Source: Gammaproteobacteria bacterium
GTDB taxonomy: Bacteria > Pseudomonadota > Gammaproteobacteria > Eutrophobiales > Eutrophobiaceae
Direction of reading: 5' to 3'
DNA length: 64,000 nt
NCBI GenBank assembly: GCA_965240365.1
Contig: OZ251218.1
Span: 2,254,356 to 2,318,355, forward strand
How positions within the stretch are numbered: the stretch's first letter is position 1; the number at the start of each line of letters is the position of its first letter. Position numbers and translations under genes: made by a program. Under the pieces are notes generated by a model. It was not told the DNA's origin, did not search any database, and saw only the letters and a list, made by a program, of their open reading frames with translations. This document shows, piece by piece, positions 7,240 through 60,214 of the stretch.

Positions 7240-7480
7240 CGTCATTCCAGCGAAAGCTGGAATCCACGCCTGCCGGAGGCAGGCCTGCCTGCTGCAGGCA
7301 GGTAGCGGGGTGGCAGCTAATTCAGCGGGGTCTGTTGGAATGAGGTATTCAGATGGTCATTCCCGCTTATGCGGGAATGTATTGTATCAACCACTGGATT
7401 CCAGCTTTCGCTGGAATGACGATGGGGTGTTGTTCCGGCTTTACATCATTCCGGCCTGCCTGCCGCAGACAGGCTCATGC
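7240..7480. repeat. Palindromic repeat cluster
   Basis: cgtcattccagcgaaagctggaatcc, ctgcctgctgcaggcagg, cattcccgcttatgcgggaatg modules. Confidence 0.6.
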
Positions 7481-7546
7481 TATTTTCTGCACACTCAATC
7501 CACATGCGACTTAACCCACTCGGAACTCAAAAGAGCCCTTTTATTA

Positions 7547-8212
7547 TTATGCCTGCCCCTCTCCGTCATTCTGGCGGGTCCGAGACGGGCAGGCCCCGGA
7601 CTGTCGTTTCCGCAGAAAATATTGTCTGGCCACCCAGACGCAGAACAGCGGCGCGCCCGCGCCCGCGAGCAGCAGGAAGTAGTAGTCGAGTTGCAGCAAG
7701 GTCACGATCGGGGTCAGGTATAAAATATCCTCGGCTTCCAGGAACAGCTTTTCTACATCGGCATCCCCGGCGTTTGCCGATTTTTTTTCCAGTTCGGACA
7801 GCCCGTGTATGAAGATAAAGATAGCGGCCACCGCCAGACCGGAAATGCCGCCCAGGAGGCCGGCATGGCCGCCGGCGCCGCCCTGCATCAGGCCGATGCC
7901 CAGGCCGACAAACAGGGAGATATTCACCAGCGCGTCCGAGTACAGGTCAAAATAATGCCCGAATGCGCTGCTGTTGCCGGTCAGGCGGGCCAGTTCGCCA
8001 TCGGTGTGATCGAGGAAATTGGAGATCACAAAAAGCAGCGCGCCGATATTGGCGTGCAGATAGCCGCCCACGCAAAAAAAATAGAACGCGAGCAACCCGC
8101 AGGCGAGACGCAGGGCGGTCAGATGGTTAGGCGTGATGAAGGTGTTTTTTAAGGGATAGACCAGGCGGCAGGCCAGCCGCGCGTCCCAGGGTTTGTCCTC
8201 AGCCCCGGCCAT
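7547..8212 (-). CDS. CDP-alcohol phosphatidyltransferase family membrane protein
   Basis: Exact D-x2-DG-x2-AR-x8-G-x3-D-x3-D motif (DHTDGELARLTGNSSAFGHYFDLYSD); multiple TM helices; start overlaps the stop of the upstream hpnN-like gene by 14 bp. Confidence 0.75.
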   Translation of the reverse strand: MAGAEDKPWDARLACRLVYPLKNTFITPNHLTALRLACGLLAFYFFCVGGYLHANIGALLFVISNFLDHTDGELARLTGNSSAFGHYFDLYSDALVNISLFVGLGIGLMQGGAGGHAGLLGGISGLAVAAIFIFIHGLSELEKKSANAGDADVEKLFLEAEDILYLTPIVTLLQLDYYFLLLAGAGAPLFCVWVARQYFLRKRQSGACPSRTRQNDGEGQA

Positions 8213-16333: not shown

Positions 16334-17278
16334 ATGCAAAAAGATTCACGAATTTATGTCGCGGGCCATACCGGTTTGGTGGGCAGCGCGATATGCCGCT
16401 ATCTGCACAAGCATAAATTCACTAACCTCATTGTCCGCTCCCATGCCGAACTCGACTTGATGGCGCAAACCGAGGTCGAGCGGTTTTTTGAAGCAACAAG
16501 GCCGGAATATGTGTTTGACGCTGCGGCGGTGGTGGGGGGCATCCAGGCCAATGCGGCCAGGCCGGTTGAGTTTCTGCGTGATAATCTGTTAATACAGACC
16601 CATCTTATTGATACGGCCTGTAAATATGAGGCAAAAAAACTGGCCTTTCTGGGCTCCACCTGCATCTATCCGCGTGATTGCCCGCAGCCGATAAAAGAGG
16701 AATATCTGCTCACGGGCCCGCTGGAAGAAACTAATCAGTGGTATGCGATAGCCAAGATTGCGGGGCTCAAACTTTGTCAGGCCTACCAAAGACAATACGG
16801 CTTTAATGCCATCGCGTTGATGCCGACCAATCTCTACGGGCCGGGCGATAATTTCAGCCTGCCCGGTTCGCATGTCCTGCCGGCCTTGATCAGAAAATTC
16901 CATGAGGCCAGGCTCAGGCAGGCCGAAACGGTGGAAGTCTGGGGCTCCGGGCGGCCCTGCCGGGAATTTCTGTATGTTGACGACCTGGCCGAGGCGGCCG
17001 TCTTTCTCATGCGGAATTATAATGATCCCTCGATCATCAATATCGGCGTGGGCAAAGACATCAGTATTATGGCGCTGGCCGATTTAATAAAAAACACGGT
17101 GGGCTATAAAGGCGACATTGTCTTTAATACCGGCCAGCCGGATGGCACACCCAGAAAGCTGTGCGATGTAAGCAGGCTGAGGCAACTGGGCTGGCAAAGC
17201 AGCACGTCACTGCGCCGGGGTATTGAGTTGACTTATGCCTGGTTTTGCAGGCATTATGGTAAGGAAGCTCTGATTTAA
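16334..17278 (+). CDS. fcl: GDP-L-fucose synthase (GDP-4-keto-6-deoxy-D-mannose 3,5-epimerase/4-reductase)
   Basis: IYVAGHTGLVGSAI Rossmann start, NLYGPGDNF, SHVLPALIRKFHEA; 314 aa. Confidence 0.85.
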   Translation: MQKDSRIYVAGHTGLVGSAICRYLHKHKFTNLIVRSHAELDLMAQTEVERFFEATRPEYVFDAAAVVGGIQANAARPVEFLRDNLLIQTHLIDTACKYEAKKLAFLGSTCIYPRDCPQPIKEEYLLTGPLEETNQWYAIAKIAGLKLCQAYQRQYGFNAIALMPTNLYGPGDNFSLPGSHVLPALIRKFHEARLRQAETVEVWGSGRPCREFLYVDDLAEAAVFLMRNYNDPSIINIGVGKDISIMALADLIKNTVGYKGDIVFNTGQPDGTPRKLCDVSRLRQLGWQSSTSLRRGIELTYAWFCRHYGKEALI

Positions 17279-17462
17279 TCAGAGTTTTATGCGGCATAGG
17301 GACCTGCCTGCTGCAGGCAGGTGTGCCGCCCCAAATCAATAACCTGGCATTGACGTCAGTCATTGATTTTGAAGCCCTGCCTGCTACAGGCAGGAGGGTG
17401 AAAATGCAATTTTCACCCCGCGTGCTCTGGGAAGTTCAGGATGGACTTATTCAGAGTTGCCT
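17263..17462. mobile_element. MITE family B copy (diverged, about 200 bp); its first 16 bp supply the last codons and stop of fcl
   Basis: Terminal palindrome ggaagctctgatttaatcagag..., internal aggtgaaaatgcaattttcacc and ctgcctgctgcaggcagg modules, ends ...ggatggacttattcagagttgcc; homologous to 26030-26202, 50937-51086, 60066-60214. Confidence 0.6.
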
Positions 17463-17687
17463 TAAGGACTCCGGCTCCGATCCGGCGTGTCTGCCTGTGG
17501 CAGGCCCGCCGGAATAATGTAAAACAGGAAGCCCGGAAACCGTTATCTGTGAAGACGCCTGCGAGGGGCAGGCGAGGCAATCTCAAATAACTCATTAGTA
17601 TTTTTTACCGGGCTGACATGCTATACAGCTTCACACGCACAATCTCGCTGGCGGGATGCCCGTCGGCTTTAACCGGAACTGCGTCAG

Positions 17688-25985: not shown

Positions 25986-26029
25986 GATCGTAGGGAGCAA
26001 GACCACATGATTCACACAAGGAAACTCTG

Positions 26030-26202
26030 ATTTAATCAGAGTTTCCTGCGGCACAGGGAAGTGCCGCCCCAAGATCAATAACTTGGCAATGACGTCAGTC
26101 ATTTGATTTTGAAGTAAGGTGAAAATCGCATTTTCGCCTTGCGCGCTCTGACCTGCCTGCAGCAGGCAGGTGAGTCCTGGATGGACTTATTCAGAGCTTC
26201 CA
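26030..26202. mobile_element. MITE family B copy (inverted orientation) in the hflX-hflK intergenic region
   Basis: ggaaactctgatttaatcagagtttcc ... aggtgaaaatcgcattttc ... ctgcctgcagcaggcagg ... tcctggatggacttattcagagcttcc; flanked by ACAA on both sides (putative 4-bp target-site duplication). Confidence 0.65.
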
Positions 26203-32911: not shown

Positions 32912-33003
32912 CGGCAGTTGATTCACCCCGCCCGCAGAGCCAATTTCAGGAACGGCGGCCTGCGCGGGAAACGGATTACCCGGCGAGGCGTACGCCGCCG
33001 CCC

Positions 33004-33546
33004 TCACTCGGCCAGGCCCGTATCAAGGCCGTCAATGCTTTTACTGTTCTTGTCATGCTGATATTCGGCAATGCCCGCGGCCCCCTTCCCCTCGGCCCAG
33101 CGTTGCAGGGTAGCGCGTTCCCGCGCGGGCCCCATCTGCGGCACGCCAAAGCCGCAACTGGTTTGCACCGACTCAATGTCGATAAAGATAATCTGGCGGA
33201 CACCGGCCAGCCGGGGGAAACGGCCCAGATTCGTCTCAAAATCCGAAGCGCCGGGTCGGGCCACCGATCCGTGCCCGTAAAGCCGCACGATCAGCGGTTT
33301 TTGCGTGAAGCTGTTAAACATGATCGTTATGCGTCCATCCGCCTTGATATGAGCCGCGGTCTCATTGCCGCTGCCCGTGATATCCAGATAGGCGCAGCGC
33401 GCGGGGTTCAACACGCGAAACGTATCCATGCCCTTGGGCGACAGATTGATACGCCCGCCGGGCGCGGCCGTGGCGACAAAGAACATGGGTTGCTCGCCGA
33501 TAAACGCGGTCAATTTATCCGACAACTGATCATAAAAATCCGCCAT
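33004..33546 (-). CDS. Pyridoxamine 5'-phosphate oxidase-like FMN-binding split-barrel protein
   Basis: MFFVATAAPGGRINLSPKG and length (180 aa) typical of the PNPOx-like family. Confidence 0.6.
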   Translation of the reverse strand: MADFYDQLSDKLTAFIGEQPMFFVATAAPGGRINLSPKGMDTFRVLNPARCAYLDITGSGNETAAHIKADGRITIMFNSFTQKPLIVRLYGHGSVARPGASDFETNLGRFPRLAGVRQIIFIDIESVQTSCGFGVPQMGPARERATLQRWAEGKGAAGIAEYQHDKNSKSIDGLDTGLAE

Positions 33547-33639
33547 TGTGAATCCTCCTGTTCAACTCGCTCATGCGACAGATAAGAAAGCATAAACACT
33601 CTGCCGGCTTCGGGCAAGCCCGTGCCCGGGTTCAATACT

Positions 33640-34110
33640 TGTGAGATAAATCAGGGCTGCCTGCTGCCAGTAGGCGCCTTGCCAGCCGGAACAGTGTGTT
33701 TGGTTGTCATTCCCGCTTTCGCCGGACGGCTACGGGCATCCTCGGCAGCTTGTTCCTGACACTGCTCTACCACCTACGTCCTGTAGGCGTGCCCTCCCTG
33801 CCTGCTGCAGGCAGGTCGCCGCATACAGGACTTCCTGTCCATAAATGACGGTAGGGGCGGAATGTCCAAGTTCAACAACATACAAGACAAATCAGGGAGG
33901 TAGGGAATCCGTAGAACTGCCTGCAACAAGCAGGTTAGCGCAGATTATGTGTTGTTCTGTTTGGCCTGTTGCTGACGGGCGGGAATGATGGAAAGTGAAT
34001 TTCAGCTACGTCGTCATTCCGGCGAAAGCCGGAATCCAGGACAGTAGGGCCGGAGAGTGAAATAGATTACGATTCTGTCTGCCTGCCTGCTGCCAACAGG
34101 CTACAGGCAG
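33640..34110. repeat. Palindromic repeat cluster
   Basis: ctgcctgctgccagtaggc, gtcattcccgctttcgccggacgg, ctgcctgctgcaggcagg, ccataaatgacggtaggggcgg, cgtcattccggcgaaagccggaatccag modules. Confidence 0.6.
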
Positions 34111-34116
34111 GCAAGA

Positions 34117-34287
34117 CGCTCACGCACCTGCTCGGGCGTGACGGCGCGGGATGGATCGGCTTTCAGCGCGTCATAAGCCGGACCGACCTGGTTATGAAGC
34201 CAGGCTTCCACGGCGCGATCACGCGCAAGCAGCGCCCGCAGACCATCGCGGATGACTTCGCTCTCGCTCGCATACTCTCCTGTTGCC
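34117..34287 (-). pseudogene. ParD-family antitoxin remnant (C-terminal ~56 aa only)
   Basis: Minus-strand translation GEYASESEVIRDGLRALLARDRAVEAWLHNQVGPAYDALKADPSRAVTPEQVRERL matches the ParD consensus (GRYGSASEVIRAGLRLLE...); in-frame TAG right upstream, no start, no parE partner. Confidence 0.5.
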
Positions 34288-34441
34288 TATTTTAGCCAGA
34301 ATTTACATGCATGCAAAGCCCCTCCTGTAGCAGGCGGGTCGGAATAACAACGAATATTTCATTAGTTTTGCGGTTATTCTTGCTATATGTATGAACCCGT
34401 ACTATAATTTCTAAATAACGACTAAATACATAGGAGCACGA

Positions 34442-34711
34442 ATGACTGACTTACTTGCAACTGAAAAGACCTATCTAGCTGATCACCAATCCGAACTTGT
34501 GCAGAAACACCCCGGCAAATTCCTGTTGATAAAGGGAAAAGCCGTACATGGCGCTTTCCAGACTTACGAACAGGGTGTGATCGAGGGAACGGCGCGGTTC
34601 GGCGCCGGCCCCTTCCTGGTTCGCGATGTCTCTGCCACTTCTGATCCCGAAGCCCCGAACATACCGGCCTTGTCCATTGGGCTGCCGTTCACCCGCCTTG
34701 CCGATAATTAA
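34442..34711 (+). CDS. Small conserved protein (89 aa) that precedes a retropepsin-like protease; family not confidently assigned
   Basis: Substitutions against the partial duplicate at 35811-36037 are almost all synonymous in this frame, supporting protein coding. Confidence 0.6.
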   Translation: MTDLLATEKTYLADHQSELVQKHPGKFLLIKGKAVHGAFQTYEQGVIEGTARFGAGPFLVRDVSATSDPEAPNIPALSIGLPFTRLADN

Positions 34712-34728
34712 CCCGAAAGTCCAGGCCC
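34501..34728. repeat. Copy 1 of a 228-bp direct duplication (second copy at 35811-36037)
   Basis: About 94% identity; one 1-nt indel at the left edge; copy 1 lies within the small-protein gene. Confidence 0.9.
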
Positions 34729-34754
34729 AAATCCTGGACGCAAAGGGCAAAAAA

Positions 34755-35183
34755 GTGCCGCTTACCGGCAGGGCGGGCCTCCGGGATGCCGGCCCCAAAA
34801 TTAAGCTCGCGCTATCATCGTTGGAATCACAACTGCAGACCCTTGCTGATCGCGGTAAAACACCGCCCGCCCCGGTGGCCGGCTGGGGCATCATCGACAC
34901 GGGCGCCTGTGTCACCTGCGTGGATGAAACTGCGGCACGCAATGCTGGCCTGGCAACCGTGGATACGGGGCCGATTGCCTCGGCCACCCACGACAATCAC
35001 ACGGTACCCATCTTCGCCGGCCAACTTGATGTGGCCGGCATTCCTCAGAACATCAATATCTATCGTGCCTACGGCGTGAACTTGGAAGCTCAAGGACTTA
35101 TCGCGCTGATAGGGCGTGATGTGCTCGCCAACTGCATTCTGGTGTACAACGGTCTGGACGGATCGTTTTCGCTCGCGTTGTAA
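34755..35183 (+). CDS. Retropepsin-like (clan AA) aspartic protease
   Basis: GIIDTGACVTCVDETAARNAGL contains the D-T-G-A catalytic motif with the hydrophobic-hydrophobic-D-T-G-A context of retropepsins; about 140 aa. ORF track gives 34626-35183, but the overlapped 5' part reads better in the upstream gene's frame, so a GTG at 34755 is proposed; start uncertain. Confidence 0.55.
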   Translation: MPLTGRAGLRDAGPKIKLALSSLESQLQTLADRGKTPPAPVAGWGIIDTGACVTCVDETAARNAGLATVDTGPIASATHDNHTVPIFAGQLDVAGIPQNINIYRAYGVNLEAQGLIALIGRDVLANCILVYNGLDGSFSLAL

Positions 35184-35324
35184 CTTCCACGCCGCCGTGC
35201 TGGCGACTTTTGGCTTGTCGGATTGTGTACGTAGCGGATGACCTGCCTACTACGGACTAAAGAAGGCCGTGATCCGATTTCGGTCCATGTCCGCCGGGAA
35301 TAAAGTACGGCTTGTGCGGGCGGA

Positions 35325-35594
35325 CTAAAATTCGGACGCTATTGCCATATCGTAATTAGTCTGCATATTCATCCAGTAGGCCAGAGTGGTATTGAAGGCG
35401 CGGGCAAGCCGCAGGGCGGTGTCCGGCGTCATGCCGGTCGCTCCCTTGACAAGCCGCTCAATCCGCGTGCGCGGCACACCCAGGCGGCGGGCAAGGGCAA
35501 TGGCCCCCATATCCAGGGGCACAAGGTAAAGTTCTTGCAGAACTTCGCCGGGGTGCATGGGGGCTTTGAGCAGGCTCATGGACTTAATCCTCAT
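35325..35594 (-). CDS. higA: HigA antitoxin (XRE-family HTH)
   Basis: MHPGEVLQELYLVPLDMGAIALARRLGVPRTRIERLVKGATGMTPDTALRLARAF is the canonical HigA HTH; ATGA start/stop overlap with higB. Confidence 0.85.
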   Translation of the reverse strand: MRIKSMSLLKAPMHPGEVLQELYLVPLDMGAIALARRLGVPRTRIERLVKGATGMTPDTALRLARAFNTTLAYWMNMQTNYDMAIASEF

Positions 35595-35860
35595 CAGTGG
35601 TAATCGCTAATCTCAACATCAGCGGGGCCGTTCGGCGTCCAGACAAGGCAAATATGCCATTGGCGATTGATCCGCACGGCATGTTGCCCGGCCCGGTCGC
35701 CTTTCAGTGCTTCCAGCCGGTTACCCGGCGGAAGGCGTAAATCCTCCACGACAACCGCGGTATCCAGGGCCGTGAGCAGCGCCCGCGCGCGCTTTCTGCC
35801 TTGATATACCGCAGAAGCACCCCCGGCAAATTCCTGCTGATCAAGGGAAAAGCCGTACAT
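35594..35860 (-). CDS. higB: HigB toxin (RelE/ParE superfamily) with a chimeric N-terminus
   Basis: C-terminal LKGDRAGQHAVRINRQWHICLVWTPNGPADVEISDYH matches HigB. The first 13 codons (MYGFSLDQQEFAG) are encoded antisense to copy 2 of the 228-bp duplication. Confidence 0.65.
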   Translation of the reverse strand: MYGFSLDQQEFAGGASAVYQGRKRARALLTALDTAVVVEDLRLPPGNRLEALKGDRAGQHAVRINRQWHICLVWTPNGPADVEISDYH

Positions 35861-36037
35861 GGCGCTTTCCAGACTTACGAGCAGGGCGTGATCGAGGGAA
35901 CGGCGCGGTTCGGCGCCGGCCCCTTCCTGGTTCGCGATGCCTCTGCCACTTCTGACCCCGAAGCCCCGAACATCCCGGCCCTGTCCATTGGGCTGCCGTT
36001 CGCTCGCCTTGCCGATAATTAACCCGAAAGTCCAGGC
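35811..36037. repeat. Copy 2 of the 228-bp direct duplication; carries a 5'-truncated paralogue of the 34442-34711 gene (ORF 35801-36022)
   Basis: Alignment to 34501-34728; the reading frame is preserved with only synonymous changes. Confidence 0.9.
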
Positions 36038-36056
36038 TCCGGCCTTTGCGAACAGG

Positions 36057-36362
36057 CTAAGATGCGGATGCGGCTTTTGCGGCCTTGATGAGGTCTGCTG
36101 TGCGCAAGGGTTCGGGTACGTATTCAAGCGCATCCCCGTCCTGTGTAACCGCCGCCCGGCACATCTTCACGGTGCGCAGGGGTTTGGGCATAAATTTCAA
36201 CTTCACGTCTGTTGCAAAAAATACGAGGATTGCGATGCCCCCTAAGATCAGGAGAACCGTTGGATATCCTTTTACTACCAAATTAAAGATTGATAGATAG
36301 ATCAAGTATCCTATGATTCCGTAAAATATCAGCAAGATGAATCTGGAACTTCCTATAGACAT
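36057..36362 (-). CDS. Small 2-TM membrane protein encoded at the 3' edge of the low-GC island. The reading frame runs on into flanking high-GC DNA, which resembles a DUF4116-repeat fragment
   Basis: N-terminal 60 aa (two TM helices) is AT-rich; C-terminal AVTQDGDALEYVPEPLRTADLIKAAKAASAS is GC-rich and DUF4116-like; 37 bp downstream of the 742-aa gene on the same strand. Confidence 0.4.
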   Translation of the reverse strand: MSIGSSRFILLIFYGIIGYLIYLSIFNLVVKGYPTVLLILGGIAILVFFATDVKLKFMPKPLRTVKMCRAAVTQDGDALEYVPEPLRTADLIKAAKAASAS

Positions 36363-36399
36363 AGCGATCTTTTCTATTTTTAGTTAATTTGGTACAAGG

Positions 36400-38628
36400 C
36401 TAATTTTCTTCATATTGCTTCTGGAAATCTGACTGAAGTTGTGTAGAAGCTTCTGCAAGCAACACTTTGGCTCGCGAATCATCAATTTCATCATATACTT
36501 CTTTGGCTTTTGAAATTATCTTTTTGAAGGCATCTTCATCCATCCTATTACCGAGTTTTACTCCAAGCATAGAAGGAAAGATTTTGTCGTAACTACTTTG
36601 GACAGACTTTGCAGAAGGAATTGATGCAAGATAATGGATCAGAAACTCAGGCCGCATCATATATCGCGCGCCCTCTTTCGATACTAAGCTTCTAGTAGCA
36701 CTTTGAACTCTCGTTTGCTGTGTTAACCACCACGTTTTGAATCCATAAGGGTTTCCACCACTGCGTTCACTATCGACTCTACGTTTTTGAAATATGCGCA
36801 GTATAGTTAAAGCAGCGTTTCTTGATAAGATTTCTTCGCTCGCGTTATCTCTATCAATTCTATTGCGGTTATTTTTAATGTCGGATGTAAGCTGATTTAG
36901 ATCGGTTTTATTTACACCTGACAACATTTCAGCTTCGTTTTCATAGTAGAAACCGAACTCGTTTATTAGATACTCTCTTAATTCATCTCGTGAGGATGGT
37001 TTAGTAATCCTGTTTACTGTGAGAAACTTACCTAAGTAGGTTTGCCATCCAGATAGTGAATTGTTCTTAGATACTGGCTTAAGTTTGGCATAAAAGTAGG
37101 CACGTATTAAAATGCGATCAATATGGCTAGCAAGCGTTAAGTCGATATAATTTTGAATATTTTCATAATTGTTTACAAACTCAAAGTGAGTTATTTTGAG
37201 ATGATTCCACACTTCGTCGAGCGTTTTCTCCGTTAGAGCTAGTTTCGATCCAGCCGTTTTGAGAAGCTTTAAAGTATTTTTGGTCTTCTGATCTTCTTTC
37301 ACGAGCATTTGCTCTGACAATGCCTCTACAATCAAGTCAGCACCAATGTAGAGATTAAAGTTTGAGGTCATTCTTCTAAAATATTCCAAGATCCGAGGTT
37401 CATTTTTCAGCATGAAAAGAAGAATATATGTTCGGGATAACTTACGAAAGTAGCGTCTCTCTACTTCCGAACTGTTATAGTAAGCACCTCGTAAAATACT
37501 TGAACAGGTCTGGAAAATGAGTTCGGCATTTTTACCGACAAGTCCTTGATCTTCAATTTCTCGGCCCAGAAAATCTTTGATTAAAGGAAGATCGCTATCA
37601 CTTCCTTCTGCACGCTCTAGGAAAAGCACGATCTCAAGCCCTTGAGCGTGAAATGATCGATGTATAACATTATGACAGATTTCGACGCACTGTTCGATTA
37701 TTTTTGTGTTATTTGTCGCCAAGGACGTATTCTGAGCTGCTCGATTGCGAAAGATATTACTAACGTCTTGCTTTAGCGCTTCGTCCTTAACATTTTCATC
37801 GTGGATCATCTTTCTAGTTTCATAAGGCAAGCAATATCCCTTCTCTTTTCGATGATAGTTAACTTTCCGTCCGCCGTTTCCTTTGGTAGTTAGTGCATTA
37901 ATTCTATGCTTGACAATACCTCTAAAGAAAGTTTTAGCGGATGGTAGCGTCTCAATTACGCGCGTTTCAATATTGGAAAGCGATAGAAATTTACCCTTAT
38001 CAGGATCTGTTCCTTCAAGCGACCAAAGAATTAAACTATCAGTCACTGTTTCAAGAAGTTCAGTTTTCCCGCGCTGGCACTCAAGTTCCTGCCCAAGGAA
38101 CACAAAAAGTGTTTTTGCTGGAAGGCCTTGGATAGTGTTGGGCACATACCCTGTGCCGATGCCTTCCAGAAAAGAAGCTGCATCAGCAACGTATGTTTTG
38201 TAGGCTTGTAGTGCACCCGGAGTGTTGTTGATATGAGATTGGAAGTAATATCCATCTCGAATAACAATTCGACAGTCTAGTTCATCGCTAAGTTCATCCT
38301 GAATTTTATCTATCAGAGTTAGCTTTTGGTTAGTAGCGTAGATCAAACTCTTTGGATCGCGATCAAATTCTCTAAGTCGTTTTAGAGTTTTGCGAATCTT
38401 TGTCTTAGGTTCTACTGTAACGGATGCTTGCATGAACTTTTGAGTGCCACCTGCTTCGAAAATGCGATCATCTATCACCCCGTCAGCACCACCATCATGA
38501 AAACCTCCCATAGGCACATAGTCGACACCAATAGAAGACGCAAAGAACTCTTGTGCGAACTTTTCGAAATTGACTCCTTCCACTTTCGACAACGCAATTT
38601 CAATTACTCTTGTATCGACAATATCCAC
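36400..38628 (-). CDS. Uncharacterised 742-aa protein with N-terminal Mrr-type restriction-endonuclease-like (PD-(D/E)xK) domain and a long alpha-helical C-terminal region
   Basis: FEKFAQEFF...GVDYVPMGGFHDGGADGVIDD...FMQASVTV...SLIYATNQKLT follows the Mrr_cat pattern (FE..l.....G.....DgGiDg....vQcK....ilvTt); no P-loop; region GC about 40% against 62% background. Confidence 0.75.
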   Translation of the reverse strand: MDIVDTRVIEIALSKVEGVNFEKFAQEFFASSIGVDYVPMGGFHDGGADGVIDDRIFEAGGTQKFMQASVTVEPKTKIRKTLKRLREFDRDPKSLIYATNQKLTLIDKIQDELSDELDCRIVIRDGYYFQSHINNTPGALQAYKTYVADAASFLEGIGTGYVPNTIQGLPAKTLFVFLGQELECQRGKTELLETVTDSLILWSLEGTDPDKGKFLSLSNIETRVIETLPSAKTFFRGIVKHRINALTTKGNGGRKVNYHRKEKGYCLPYETRKMIHDENVKDEALKQDVSNIFRNRAAQNTSLATNNTKIIEQCVEICHNVIHRSFHAQGLEIVLFLERAEGSDSDLPLIKDFLGREIEDQGLVGKNAELIFQTCSSILRGAYYNSSEVERRYFRKLSRTYILLFMLKNEPRILEYFRRMTSNFNLYIGADLIVEALSEQMLVKEDQKTKNTLKLLKTAGSKLALTEKTLDEVWNHLKITHFEFVNNYENIQNYIDLTLASHIDRILIRAYFYAKLKPVSKNNSLSGWQTYLGKFLTVNRITKPSSRDELREYLINEFGFYYENEAEMLSGVNKTDLNQLTSDIKNNRNRIDRDNASEEILSRNAALTILRIFQKRRVDSERSGGNPYGFKTWWLTQQTRVQSATRSLVSKEGARYMMRPEFLIHYLASIPSAKSVQSSYDKIFPSMLGVKLGNRMDEDAFKKIISKAKEVYDEIDDSRAKVLLAEASTQLQSDFQKQYEEN

Positions 38629-38749
38629 TCAGTGATCTCTAATTAAGATAGCGATAGTTTTATGATAACATCACATATCGCCAACGTTGTCAATAAAAGA
38701 ATGATCTGAAGTTCTCTCATTTTTTGCCCTAGAGATAAAACTAAAACAA

Positions 38750-38905
38750 TACTCCATCGTCATTTATGGACAGAGGTGAAGTGAAATATTCGTTGTCATT
38801 CCGGCCTGTCTGCCGCAGGCAGGCGAAAGCCGGAATCCAGAAGGCGGCGCCAAGGTGGTGTATGGACTCCCGCCCGTGCCTGACTGCGGCAGGCAGGAAA
38901 CCCTG
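38750..38905. repeat. Palindromic repeat cluster at the right border of the low-GC island
   Basis: tcgtcatttatggacagaggtg, gtcattccggcctgtctgccgcaggcaggcgaaagccggaatccag, ctgactgcggcaggcagg. Confidence 0.6.
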
Positions 38906-38912
38906 GTCGATT

Positions 38913-39725
38913 TTATTTCAAATTCAGCACATCCCGCATGTCGAACAGTCCCCTGTCCTTGCCGGCCAGCCATTTTGCGGCCTTGAGCGCGCCGTTGGCG
39001 AAGGTTTTTCTGGAAGACGCCTTGTGTGTTATTTCGACACGTTCGCCGTCCGCGGCAAACAGGACCGTGTGTTCGCCAACCATATCGCCCGCGCGGATGG
39101 TTTGAAAGCCGATGCTGCCGGGCTTTCTTTCTCCGCTTCCGGCCCGGTTATACTCGGCGCATTCGCTTAAATCGCGCCCCAGCGCCGCGGCCACCACTTC
39201 GCCCATGCGCAGGGCCGTGCCCGAGGGCGCGTCTTTTTTGTGGCGATGGTGCGCTTCGATGATCTCGATGTCGGTGTCGGCGCCGATTGCCCTGGCCGTC
39301 ATCTCCAGCAGTTTGAGGCAGAGGTTGACGCCGATGCTCATGTTCGGCGCATAAACGATGGCGATCTGGTCCGCGGCGGTCTCCAGCAGTTTATGGTCTT
39401 CCCGGCCGAGGCCGGTCGTGCCGATGACCATTTTTGTATTGGTGGCCACACACTTCTGAATATTGGCCGCAAATCCGGCGGCCAGGCTGAAATCAATCAG
39501 CACATCGACATTATCAGCGGCATTATCACCCAGCGCAGCAACACCCGTGACCGGCACGCCGAGCCTGCCTGTCCCGGCCAGTTCACCGGCGTCTCGCCCC
39601 GCCGCGGGTGATTTGTCGTGTTCAATCGCGGCGGTGACTTTAACGCCTTCTGTCTCGTGACAAAGCGCCAGGATGGTTCTGCCCATCCGGCCGGCCGCGC
39701 CGCATACTCCAATTTTGAGTGTCAT
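38913..39725 (-). CDS. dapB: 4-hydroxy-tetrahydrodipicolinate reductase
   Basis: [18 protein letters not shown](P) motif, [15 protein letters not shown] active-site region, 270 aa. Confidence 0.9.
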
Positions 39726-50869: not shown

Positions 50870-51490
50870 TAATTCCAGCCCCGTCGTCATTCCAGCGAAA
50901 GCTGGAATCCAGGAGGGTAGTCCGGGGTACTATAGTGGAAGCTCTGAATAAATCCATCCTGGATTTCTCAGAGCACGCAAGGTGAAAATGCGATTTTCAC
51001 CTTGCTTCAAAATCAATGATTTGCATCATTGATTTTGGCGGTACGTCCCTGTACCGCAGGAAACTCTGATTCAATCAGAGTTTCCTAGTGAATTGCAGCT
51101 TCCACCTGCCTGCGCCAGACCGGTCTGAATGGTGTGTTTGGTTGTCATTCCCGCAAGCGGGAATGTATAACATAAACCACTGGATTCCGGCTTTCGCCGG
51201 AATGACGGAGGGGGCGATAGCAGGTTTTTCGTCATTCTGGTCGGCCCCGTTGGTTACTCTTGACGCATTCCCGGGAGCAGCACTTTACCGTCATTCCGGC
51301 GAAGGCCGGAATCCAGGAGAGCGGGGGTGGAGTGTTGGATGAATTCCGGCTTTTGCCTGCTTGCACCGGACTTACCGGAATGGTGTGTTTGGTTGTCATT
51401 CCCGCTGGGCCTGTCACAGGCAGGAAGGTGAAAATCGCATTTTCATCTGGCGCGCCCTGAAAATCCAGGATGGACTTATTCAGGGCTTCT
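50870..51490. repeat. Repeat cluster containing a MITE-B copy plus dRS3-like palindromes and a partial MITE-B end (51420-51490)
   Basis: gtcattccagcgaaagctggaatccaggag; gtcattcccgcaagcgggaatg; cgtcattccggcgaaggccggaatccaggag; aggtgaaaatcgcattttcat...tccaggatggacttattcagggcttc. Confidence 0.65.
50937..51086. mobile_element. MITE family B copy (150 bp, near-identical to 60066-60214)
   Basis: ggaagctctgaataaatccatcctggatttctcagagcacgcaaggtgaaaatgcgattttcaccttgcttcaaaatcaatgatttgcatcattgattttggcggtacgtccctgtaccgcaggaaactctgattcaatcagagtttcc; TAGT on both flanks (putative target-site duplication). Confidence 0.7.
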
Positions 51491-51504
51491 TTTAGAATCA
51501 AACC

Positions 51505-60007: not shown

Positions 60008-60065
60008 GGTTTTGGCCGGCGCCTTTTAATCGGGAAATTACAATTATAAGACAGGATTGTATTGA

Positions 60066-60214
60066 GGAAGCTCTGAATAAATCCATCCTGGATTTCTCAG
60101 AGCACGCAAGGTGAAAATGCGATTTTCACCTTGCTTCAAAATCAATGACTTGCATCATTGATTTTGGCGGTACGTCCCTGTACCGCAGGAAACTCTGACT
60201 CAATCAGAGCTTCC
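60066..60214. mobile_element. MITE family B copy (149 bp)
   Basis: 97% identical to 50937-51086; TTGA on both flanks (putative target-site duplication). Confidence 0.7.

Follow-up and report, generated by a model that had tools for sequence, protein, structure and literature searches.

In the window, by which we mean the whole 64,000-nt stretch of DNA analysed here, a protease gene, higA and higB lie between two closely similar segments in the same orientation, and the locus therefore raises the question of whether these segments are the ends of a unit that can move or whether one of them is the remnant of a gene. We favour the second answer, with a probability of roughly 85%: the right-hand copy is the pseudogene stump of a once-complete paralogue of the intact small-protein gene on the left, cut by two small deletions together with higB. 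The locus shows commonplace decay of genes among clustered addiction-type modules and is no mobile cassette. The features of the locus are as follows.

34108–34283, minus strand: 3' part of a ParD antitoxin gene, a pseudogene, with a 176-bp deletion at 34283/34284
34380–34408, plus strand: promoter-like site (TTGCTA-17-TATAAT) 5' of the intact small gene, a consensus match only
34442–34711, plus strand: intact small-protein gene, 89 aa (gene call), containing repeat copy 1
34501–34728, plus strand: repeat copy 1, comprising small-gene codons 20–89 and the first 31 nt of the protease gene
34698–35183, plus strand: retropepsin-like aspartic protease, 161 aa, TTG start at 34698, a gene call that recurs in relatives
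35325–35594, minus strand: higA antitoxin, intact (TIGR02607, 99.4 bits against a cutoff of 47.7; Pfam HTH_3)
35594–35795, minus strand: higB toxin fragment, the C-terminal ~66 codons, with the first ~27 codons and the promoter gone
35787–35810, no strand: deletion scar GCGCGCTTT (35787–35795) and 15 nt of the former higB/small-gene spacer
35811–36039, plus strand: repeat copy 2, a pseudogene fragment comprising codons 20–89 of a second small gene and 31 nt of a lost second protease gene, with a 1-nt insertion
36057–36362, minus strand: hydrophobic, AT-rich 101-aa ORF at the right end of a ~2.3-kb block common to the related loci L001, L002 and L041

Extent and divergence of the repeat

Exact alignment of 34501–34728 with 35811–36039 gave a direct repeat identical at 216 of 229 columns (94.3%), with 12 mismatches and one 1-nt indel. 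This agrees with the identity of about 94% reported by an earlier, sequence-only reading of the locus, although the copy-2 end given there (36037) is 2 nt short. A repeat finder returned 34510–34726 and 35821–36037 at 95%, and chance similarity was ruled out for the aligned pair. The indel consists of one additional C in copy 2 and puts the initial few codons of that copy out of frame. Across the in-frame part (66 codons), copy 1 and copy 2 are separated by eight synonymous and two nonsynonymous differences (V63A and T84A), and the dN/dS comparison proposed in the earlier reading yielded a value of 0.08 (Fisher p = 0.0004, against site numbers). Two more silent differences lie at K22 (aaa/aag) and in codon 10 of the protease frame. 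All five of the synonymous differences listed earlier are correct, but the list is not complete.

Related loci retain both copies

Comparison contigs were all taken from one metagenome assembly (ERZ25067570). An assembly artefact was ruled out, as L001, L002 and L041 also carry both copies, each with its own substitutions. L002 comes from a strain with 98.3% identity to the window and matches it in chromosomal locus (PNPOx ... dapB-dnaJ-dnaK) and in structure. L041, a 1x contig whose allele of the small protein is on record for a 94-kb contig too, covers the PNPOx–dapB locus with Fic in place of the 742-aa ORF of the window and with an extra 108-bp deletion across the joint between the truncated higB (higB') and copy 2. 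In L001 the ~2.3-kb block is present in full, from parD to the 101-aa ORF and with both copies, at 92–97% identity but at a different chromosomal place, adjoining an IS630-type transposase gene, Fic and a Wadjet (JetABCD) operon. The presence of the same junctions in these three loci implies that the deletion events and the repeat structure predate their divergence. The block at this second place, in the same metagenome assembly (coverage 16x against 17x), extends over L001 9496–13487 and corresponds to window 34108–36378.

The sequence-only reading had suggested that the protease–higA–higB unit could be excised or inverted like a cassette. Direct repeats can delete or duplicate the segment between them but never invert it, and this disposes of inversion. 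For excision, with the repeats acting as attL/attR-like ends or as substrates for programmed homologous recombination, it can be said that about 228 bp of direct repeat at 94% identity is in principle enough for RecA-mediated deletion, and that the ~2.3-kb block occurs at two chromosomal places beside changing cargo (the 742-aa ORF; Fic; Fic and Wadjet). However, no integrase or transposase was called within 10 kb on either side and no tRNA gene that could serve as an integration target was present in the window. The suggested comparison of relatives for presence or absence of the intervening segment showed both repeats in all four versions (window, L001, L002 and L041), among which no precise 1.31-kb loss between the repeats was seen. 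The sole rearrangement, that in L041, is an illegitimate 108-bp deletion rather than a repeat-by-repeat recombination. The three genes do lie between the repeats, as had been stated, but higB has lost its 5' end and copy 1 includes the opening 31 nt of the protease gene; the segment is not self-contained, because the protease start belongs to copy 1 and the toxin gene is dead. An intact gene accompanied by a diverged, 5'-truncated direct copy of its 3' part is also what attL/attR of integrative elements present, but here a recombinase and an empty site are both missing from the ranges just given, copy 2 is bordered on its left by a deletion scar and leftover spacer rather than by a crossover core, and the enclosed DNA consists of 1.1 kb of partly dead genes. 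We therefore regard a mobile or excisable cassette as very unlikely. Homologous deletion between the copies is physically possible and would leave an orphan small gene without a protease.

An undeleted layout in a relative

A third genomic context, L050, contains higA and a higB that is intact at 93 aa; across a 186-bp spacer lies a small gene, complete at 89 aa and oppositely oriented, which no protease follows. The L050 higBA segment (7274–7734) is 96.7% identical to window 35335–35795, and the L050 small gene shares 93.6% identity with window 35811–36043. In addition, window 35787–35811 (GCGCGCTTTCTGCCTTGATATACCG) matches L050 spacer positions 7896–7920 at 24 of 25 nt, and the 9-mer GCGCGCTTT occurs twice in L050 (at 7726 in higB and at 7896 in the spacer) and once in the window. 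Compared with L050, the window lacks 170 bp between these 9-bp repeats, covering higB codons 1–27 and the higB promoter-like site, plus about 138 bp covering the rest of the spacer and small-gene codons 1–19. The -10 element and ribosome-binding site of the L050 small gene, like the higB promoter-like site, fall in stretches deleted from the window. Taken with the surviving piece of spacer, the two deletions indicate that copy 2 descends from a complete gene that pointed away from higB and possessed an upstream region of its own.

The same joint could be read as the product of an in-situ tandem duplication or replication template switch that copied 34501–35810, or the 228 bp alone, such that copy 2 was never part of a working gene. 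This account needs fewer events on paper, the junction of a truncated higB with a truncated small gene has the geometry that it predicts, and some of the synonymous excess between the copies arises from selection on copy 1 alone. Against this, the joint is not an end-to-start fusion, since 24 nt left over from a separate upstream spacer intervene between higB' and copy 2; L050 has the divergent layout intact; and the four early differences of copy 2 (see below) are all synonymous, an outcome with a chance of 0.03–0.12 if copy 2 had always been neutral. The spacer relic and the L050 layout lead us to exclude duplication or template switching as an extremely improbable origin, and all three observations bear out the earlier proposal that copy 2 derives from a functional paralogue. 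Homology-facilitated illegitimate recombination was also considered and was dropped on finding the spacer relic.

If copy 2 is the stump of a paralogue, the ancestor would have had two neighbouring units, the first consisting of parD and the operon of small gene and retropepsin-like protease, and the second of higA and higB reading away from a second complete small gene, whose protease partner would have been lost already or later. A 170-bp deletion between the 9-bp direct repeats and another of about 138 bp would have stripped higB of its 5' end, eliminated both promoters and shortened the second small gene by its first 19 codons, silencing the toxin gene and the small gene together. The leftover second small gene, 94% identical to the first, would then appear as a direct repeat around protease–higA–higB'. 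We infer this order of events, and the deletions may have spread because they removed the toxin. The locus provides a clean and fully traceable example of microhomology-mediated deletion eliminating a toxin gene along with a neighbouring paralogue, which matters little in itself.

Selection on the intact gene and on the fragment

Purifying selection acts strongly on the small-gene/protease operon. In the comparison of the window with L001, the small gene has six synonymous and no nonsynonymous differences, the small gene and protease together have 10 synonymous and no nonsynonymous differences in 250 codons, and the protease protein is identical in the window, L001 and L002 despite 4–5 synonymous changes.

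All copy-2 versions are separated from all copy-1 versions and from L050 at four sites, each of them synonymous, with AAG, CTG, ATC and CTG as the copy-2 states. L050, whose coding sequence has the copy-1 state at these diagnostic sites, is either a sister of copy 2 with ancestral states or has been homogenised with copy 1, and the flanks favour the sister relationship. Past the protease breakpoint, L050 and copy 2 have only 4–5 nt in common; beyond the repeat's right-hand boundary, copy 1, copy 2 and L050 showed no more homology to one another than shuffled controls, and unrelated AT-rich DNA lies to the right of copy 2 from 36040.

Since the deletion, copy 2 has been evolving as a pseudogene under relaxed constraint. 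The copy-1 lineages account for six synonymous changes and one nonsynonymous change, compared with four synonymous and six nonsynonymous changes on the copy-2 lineages (I47T, which functional alleles carry too, was left out of these counts). The copy-2 changes include G49E at an invariant position (L002) and E43K and V46M at nearly invariant positions, and are accompanied by three indels: the 1-nt insertion in the window, a 2-nt deletion in L001 and the 108-bp deletion in L041. Between the window and the syntenic L002, copy 2 differs at six sites and by an indel and copy 1 at two sites, a ~3x divergence. Copy 2 begins at codon 20 and has neither promoter, start nor the first 19 codons; the earlier statement that it is not a random relic is thus no longer tenable for its present state, even though the paralogue from which it came was functional. 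Truncation without start or promoter, relaxed constraint and an undeleted layout in a relative, all found for copy 2, are the marks by which a pseudogene made by deletion is recognised.

The dN/dS of 0.08 between the copies reflects both the selection that copy 2 experienced as a gene and the selection that still acts on copy 1 alone. Of the eight in-frame synonymous differences in the window, four arose on the copy-1 lineage and are therefore uninformative on selection acting on copy 2. Synonymous-only divergence of an intact gene from a fragment hence need not mean that the fragment is still under selection.

It might nevertheless be argued that copy 2 still functions, either through a protein of 73 aa shortened at its N terminus or through an RNA acting as antisense or decoy, given that a window ORF (35801–36022, TTG at 35801, 73 aa) spans copy 2 and retains the predicted folded core (residues 27–62). 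This ORF is not conserved, however, being frameshifted by the 2-nt deletion in L001, deprived of 108 bp in L041 and altered by G49E at the invariant glycine in L002. A consensus scan found no promoter-like site on the plus strand between 35369 and copy 2, and no Rfam families were found in 33000–39000. We consider a present function for copy 2 extremely improbable.

Base composition also differs between the copies, with A or T in copy 1 and G or C in copy 2 at 10 of the 12 repeat mismatches. The A/T bias of copy 1 is partly GC-to-AT drift at silent sites on the copy-1 lineage, and the four early copy-2 changes run the opposite way, from AT to GC. Gene conversion was considered for the copy-2-like silent states in L001 copy 1 and was dropped, as ordinary divergence suffices (six differences observed, about seven expected at 3.1%).

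A degenerate islet between PNPOx and dapB

In the islet that separates PNPOx from dapB, parD without parE is accompanied by the operon of small gene and protease, by higA and its dead higB partner, by the stump, and by a cargo gene that is AT-rich and variable. The window HigA passes the equivalog cutoff of the antitoxin of the HigBA/GraTA family (PF05015 toxin, TIGR02607 antitoxin; PDB 6F8S). It probably starts at 35579, giving 84 aa, and exact look-up of the two HigA start variants found neither on record. The HigB fragment covers positions 28–82 of the 91 in the PF05015 profile and aligns solely to residues 35–98 of PDB 6f8s_B (E = 2e-21), matching a solved toxin of HigB type over its C-terminal two thirds; by PF05015 and 6f8s_B coverage, the fragment is not a full-length HigB/RelE-fold toxin. 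Unlike the characterised systems, the window toxin lacks about 27–34 N-terminal residues and its promoter, and the two genes are not a working pair.

A window-specific 176-bp deletion took the first ~24 codons of parD and the region upstream, whereas L001, L002 and L041 retain the extra 176 bp and an intact ParD of 92–93 aa. The remaining parD DNA is 85% identical to parD of IncP-1-type plasmids; parE is absent in the window, and L002 has just a C-terminal scrap of it. Whether the 101-aa ORF is a real gene is uncertain, as it is uncalled in L002 and broken by an IS630-type insertion in L001. The islet resembles degenerate chromosomal type II toxin-antitoxin loci in that higB has lost its 5' end beside an intact higA, parD occurs without parE, and the modules cluster in a small variable stretch flanked by housekeeping genes. 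It is unlike them in that the deletion that killed higB also cut a neighbouring paralogue, whose stump repeats part of an intact gene 1.3 kb away.

Several other elements were observed in and around the islet. The 742-aa ORF (36400–38628, minus strand) has a GC content of 38–45%, against about 58% for the genome; it belongs to no Pfam family, gave a weak N-terminal PADLOC match (E = 1e-4) to a restriction-endonuclease-type domain of an Argonaute-associated defence protein, and was not on record by exact look-up. A GC-rich palindrome, CTGCCTGCTGCAGGCAGG, is present with variants in several copies at 33597–34111, between the PNPOx gene and parD, a stretch that is ~280 bp longer in the window than in L002. 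Elsewhere, a MITE-like repeated element of ~152 bp, with five successive hairpins and terminal inverted repeats (GGAAGCTCTGA...TCAGAGTTTCC), has copies in the window at 50937–51085 and 60062–60214 and, on the minus strand, at 26020–26151, 17257–17467 and 51422–51495. A copy in L001 (11005–11160) is inserted into higA, which it splits.

A small protein coupled to a retropepsin-like protease

The intact operon is the more useful side product of this analysis, being rare, horizontally scattered and strongly constrained among toxin-antitoxin remnants. The small protein is modelled as two helices and a beta-beta-alpha-beta core, which is folded in the model, followed by a disordered C-terminal tail with a conserved IPALS(I/V)G motif; this tail is the most conserved part of the family. 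No Pfam, NCBIfam or PADLOC family, PDB sequence match or PDB fold match was found for the small protein. The start of the protease gene overlaps the end of the small gene by 14 nt, and an identical overlap is seen in most of 28 distant loci.

The protease has both a catalytic DTG motif and a retropepsin fold. Its DTGA (D66-T67-G68-A69) and GRD motifs are invariant in the family, and the model (pLDDT 92) matches retropepsin folds at a probability of 1.0 (foamy virus, FIV and HTLV-1 proteases and Rickettsia APRc). At the level of sequence, the family profile matches HIV and HTLV proteases weakly, and the match of the window protein to Pfam PF13975 is likewise weak (19.8 bits against a cutoff of 28.2), with many homologues carrying precomputed PF13975 or PF13650 matches. 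The DTG(A) and GRD motifs and the fold are common to the bacterial retropepsin-like proteases APRc (PDB 5C9B/5C9F) and Pseudomonas RloA (PDB 9G59). The window protease differs from these in an extra N-terminal domain of ~58 residues, in having no noted signal or membrane part, in its translational coupling to the small upstream gene and in belonging to a separate and rare sequence family.

The small-protein family is rare (37 clusters) and scattered over MAGs of several phyla. Scanning species-representative genomes with the single small protein gave no match, and an alignment scan of the same genomes recovered the 28 distant small-gene loci, with one copy each; the repeat structure is absent from all 28. 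JGI metagenomes yielded only seven distant loci, phage collections gave no match, plasmid matches were limited to parD and higBA, and a literature search found no paper on this gene pair.

The coupled two-gene operon, the disordered conserved tail, the patchy distribution and the existence of orphan small genes are circumstantial features suggesting that the pair may be an addiction-like module. A tentative reading, in which we place clearly less confidence than doubt, is that the two genes encode a hitherto undescribed pair of addiction or defence type: the IPALS[I/V]G tail of the small protein would occupy the protease active site, and orphan small genes, such as the copy-2 ancestor and that of L050, would persist as protection against incoming copies. 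If so, the islet would record turnover of competing modules.

The small gene usually lies directly upstream of the protease, but sometimes alone or before an HNH protein. In some genomes it is followed by a 359-aa HNH-domain protein (L015 5203–6282) or a 340-aa protein (L011 5251–6273) instead of the protease, and in others it stands alone (L004 5001–5264; L048 6001–6264). One lone small gene lies on an 80-kb contig marked as circular by the assembler (suffix _c), together with ParA and an integrase gene.
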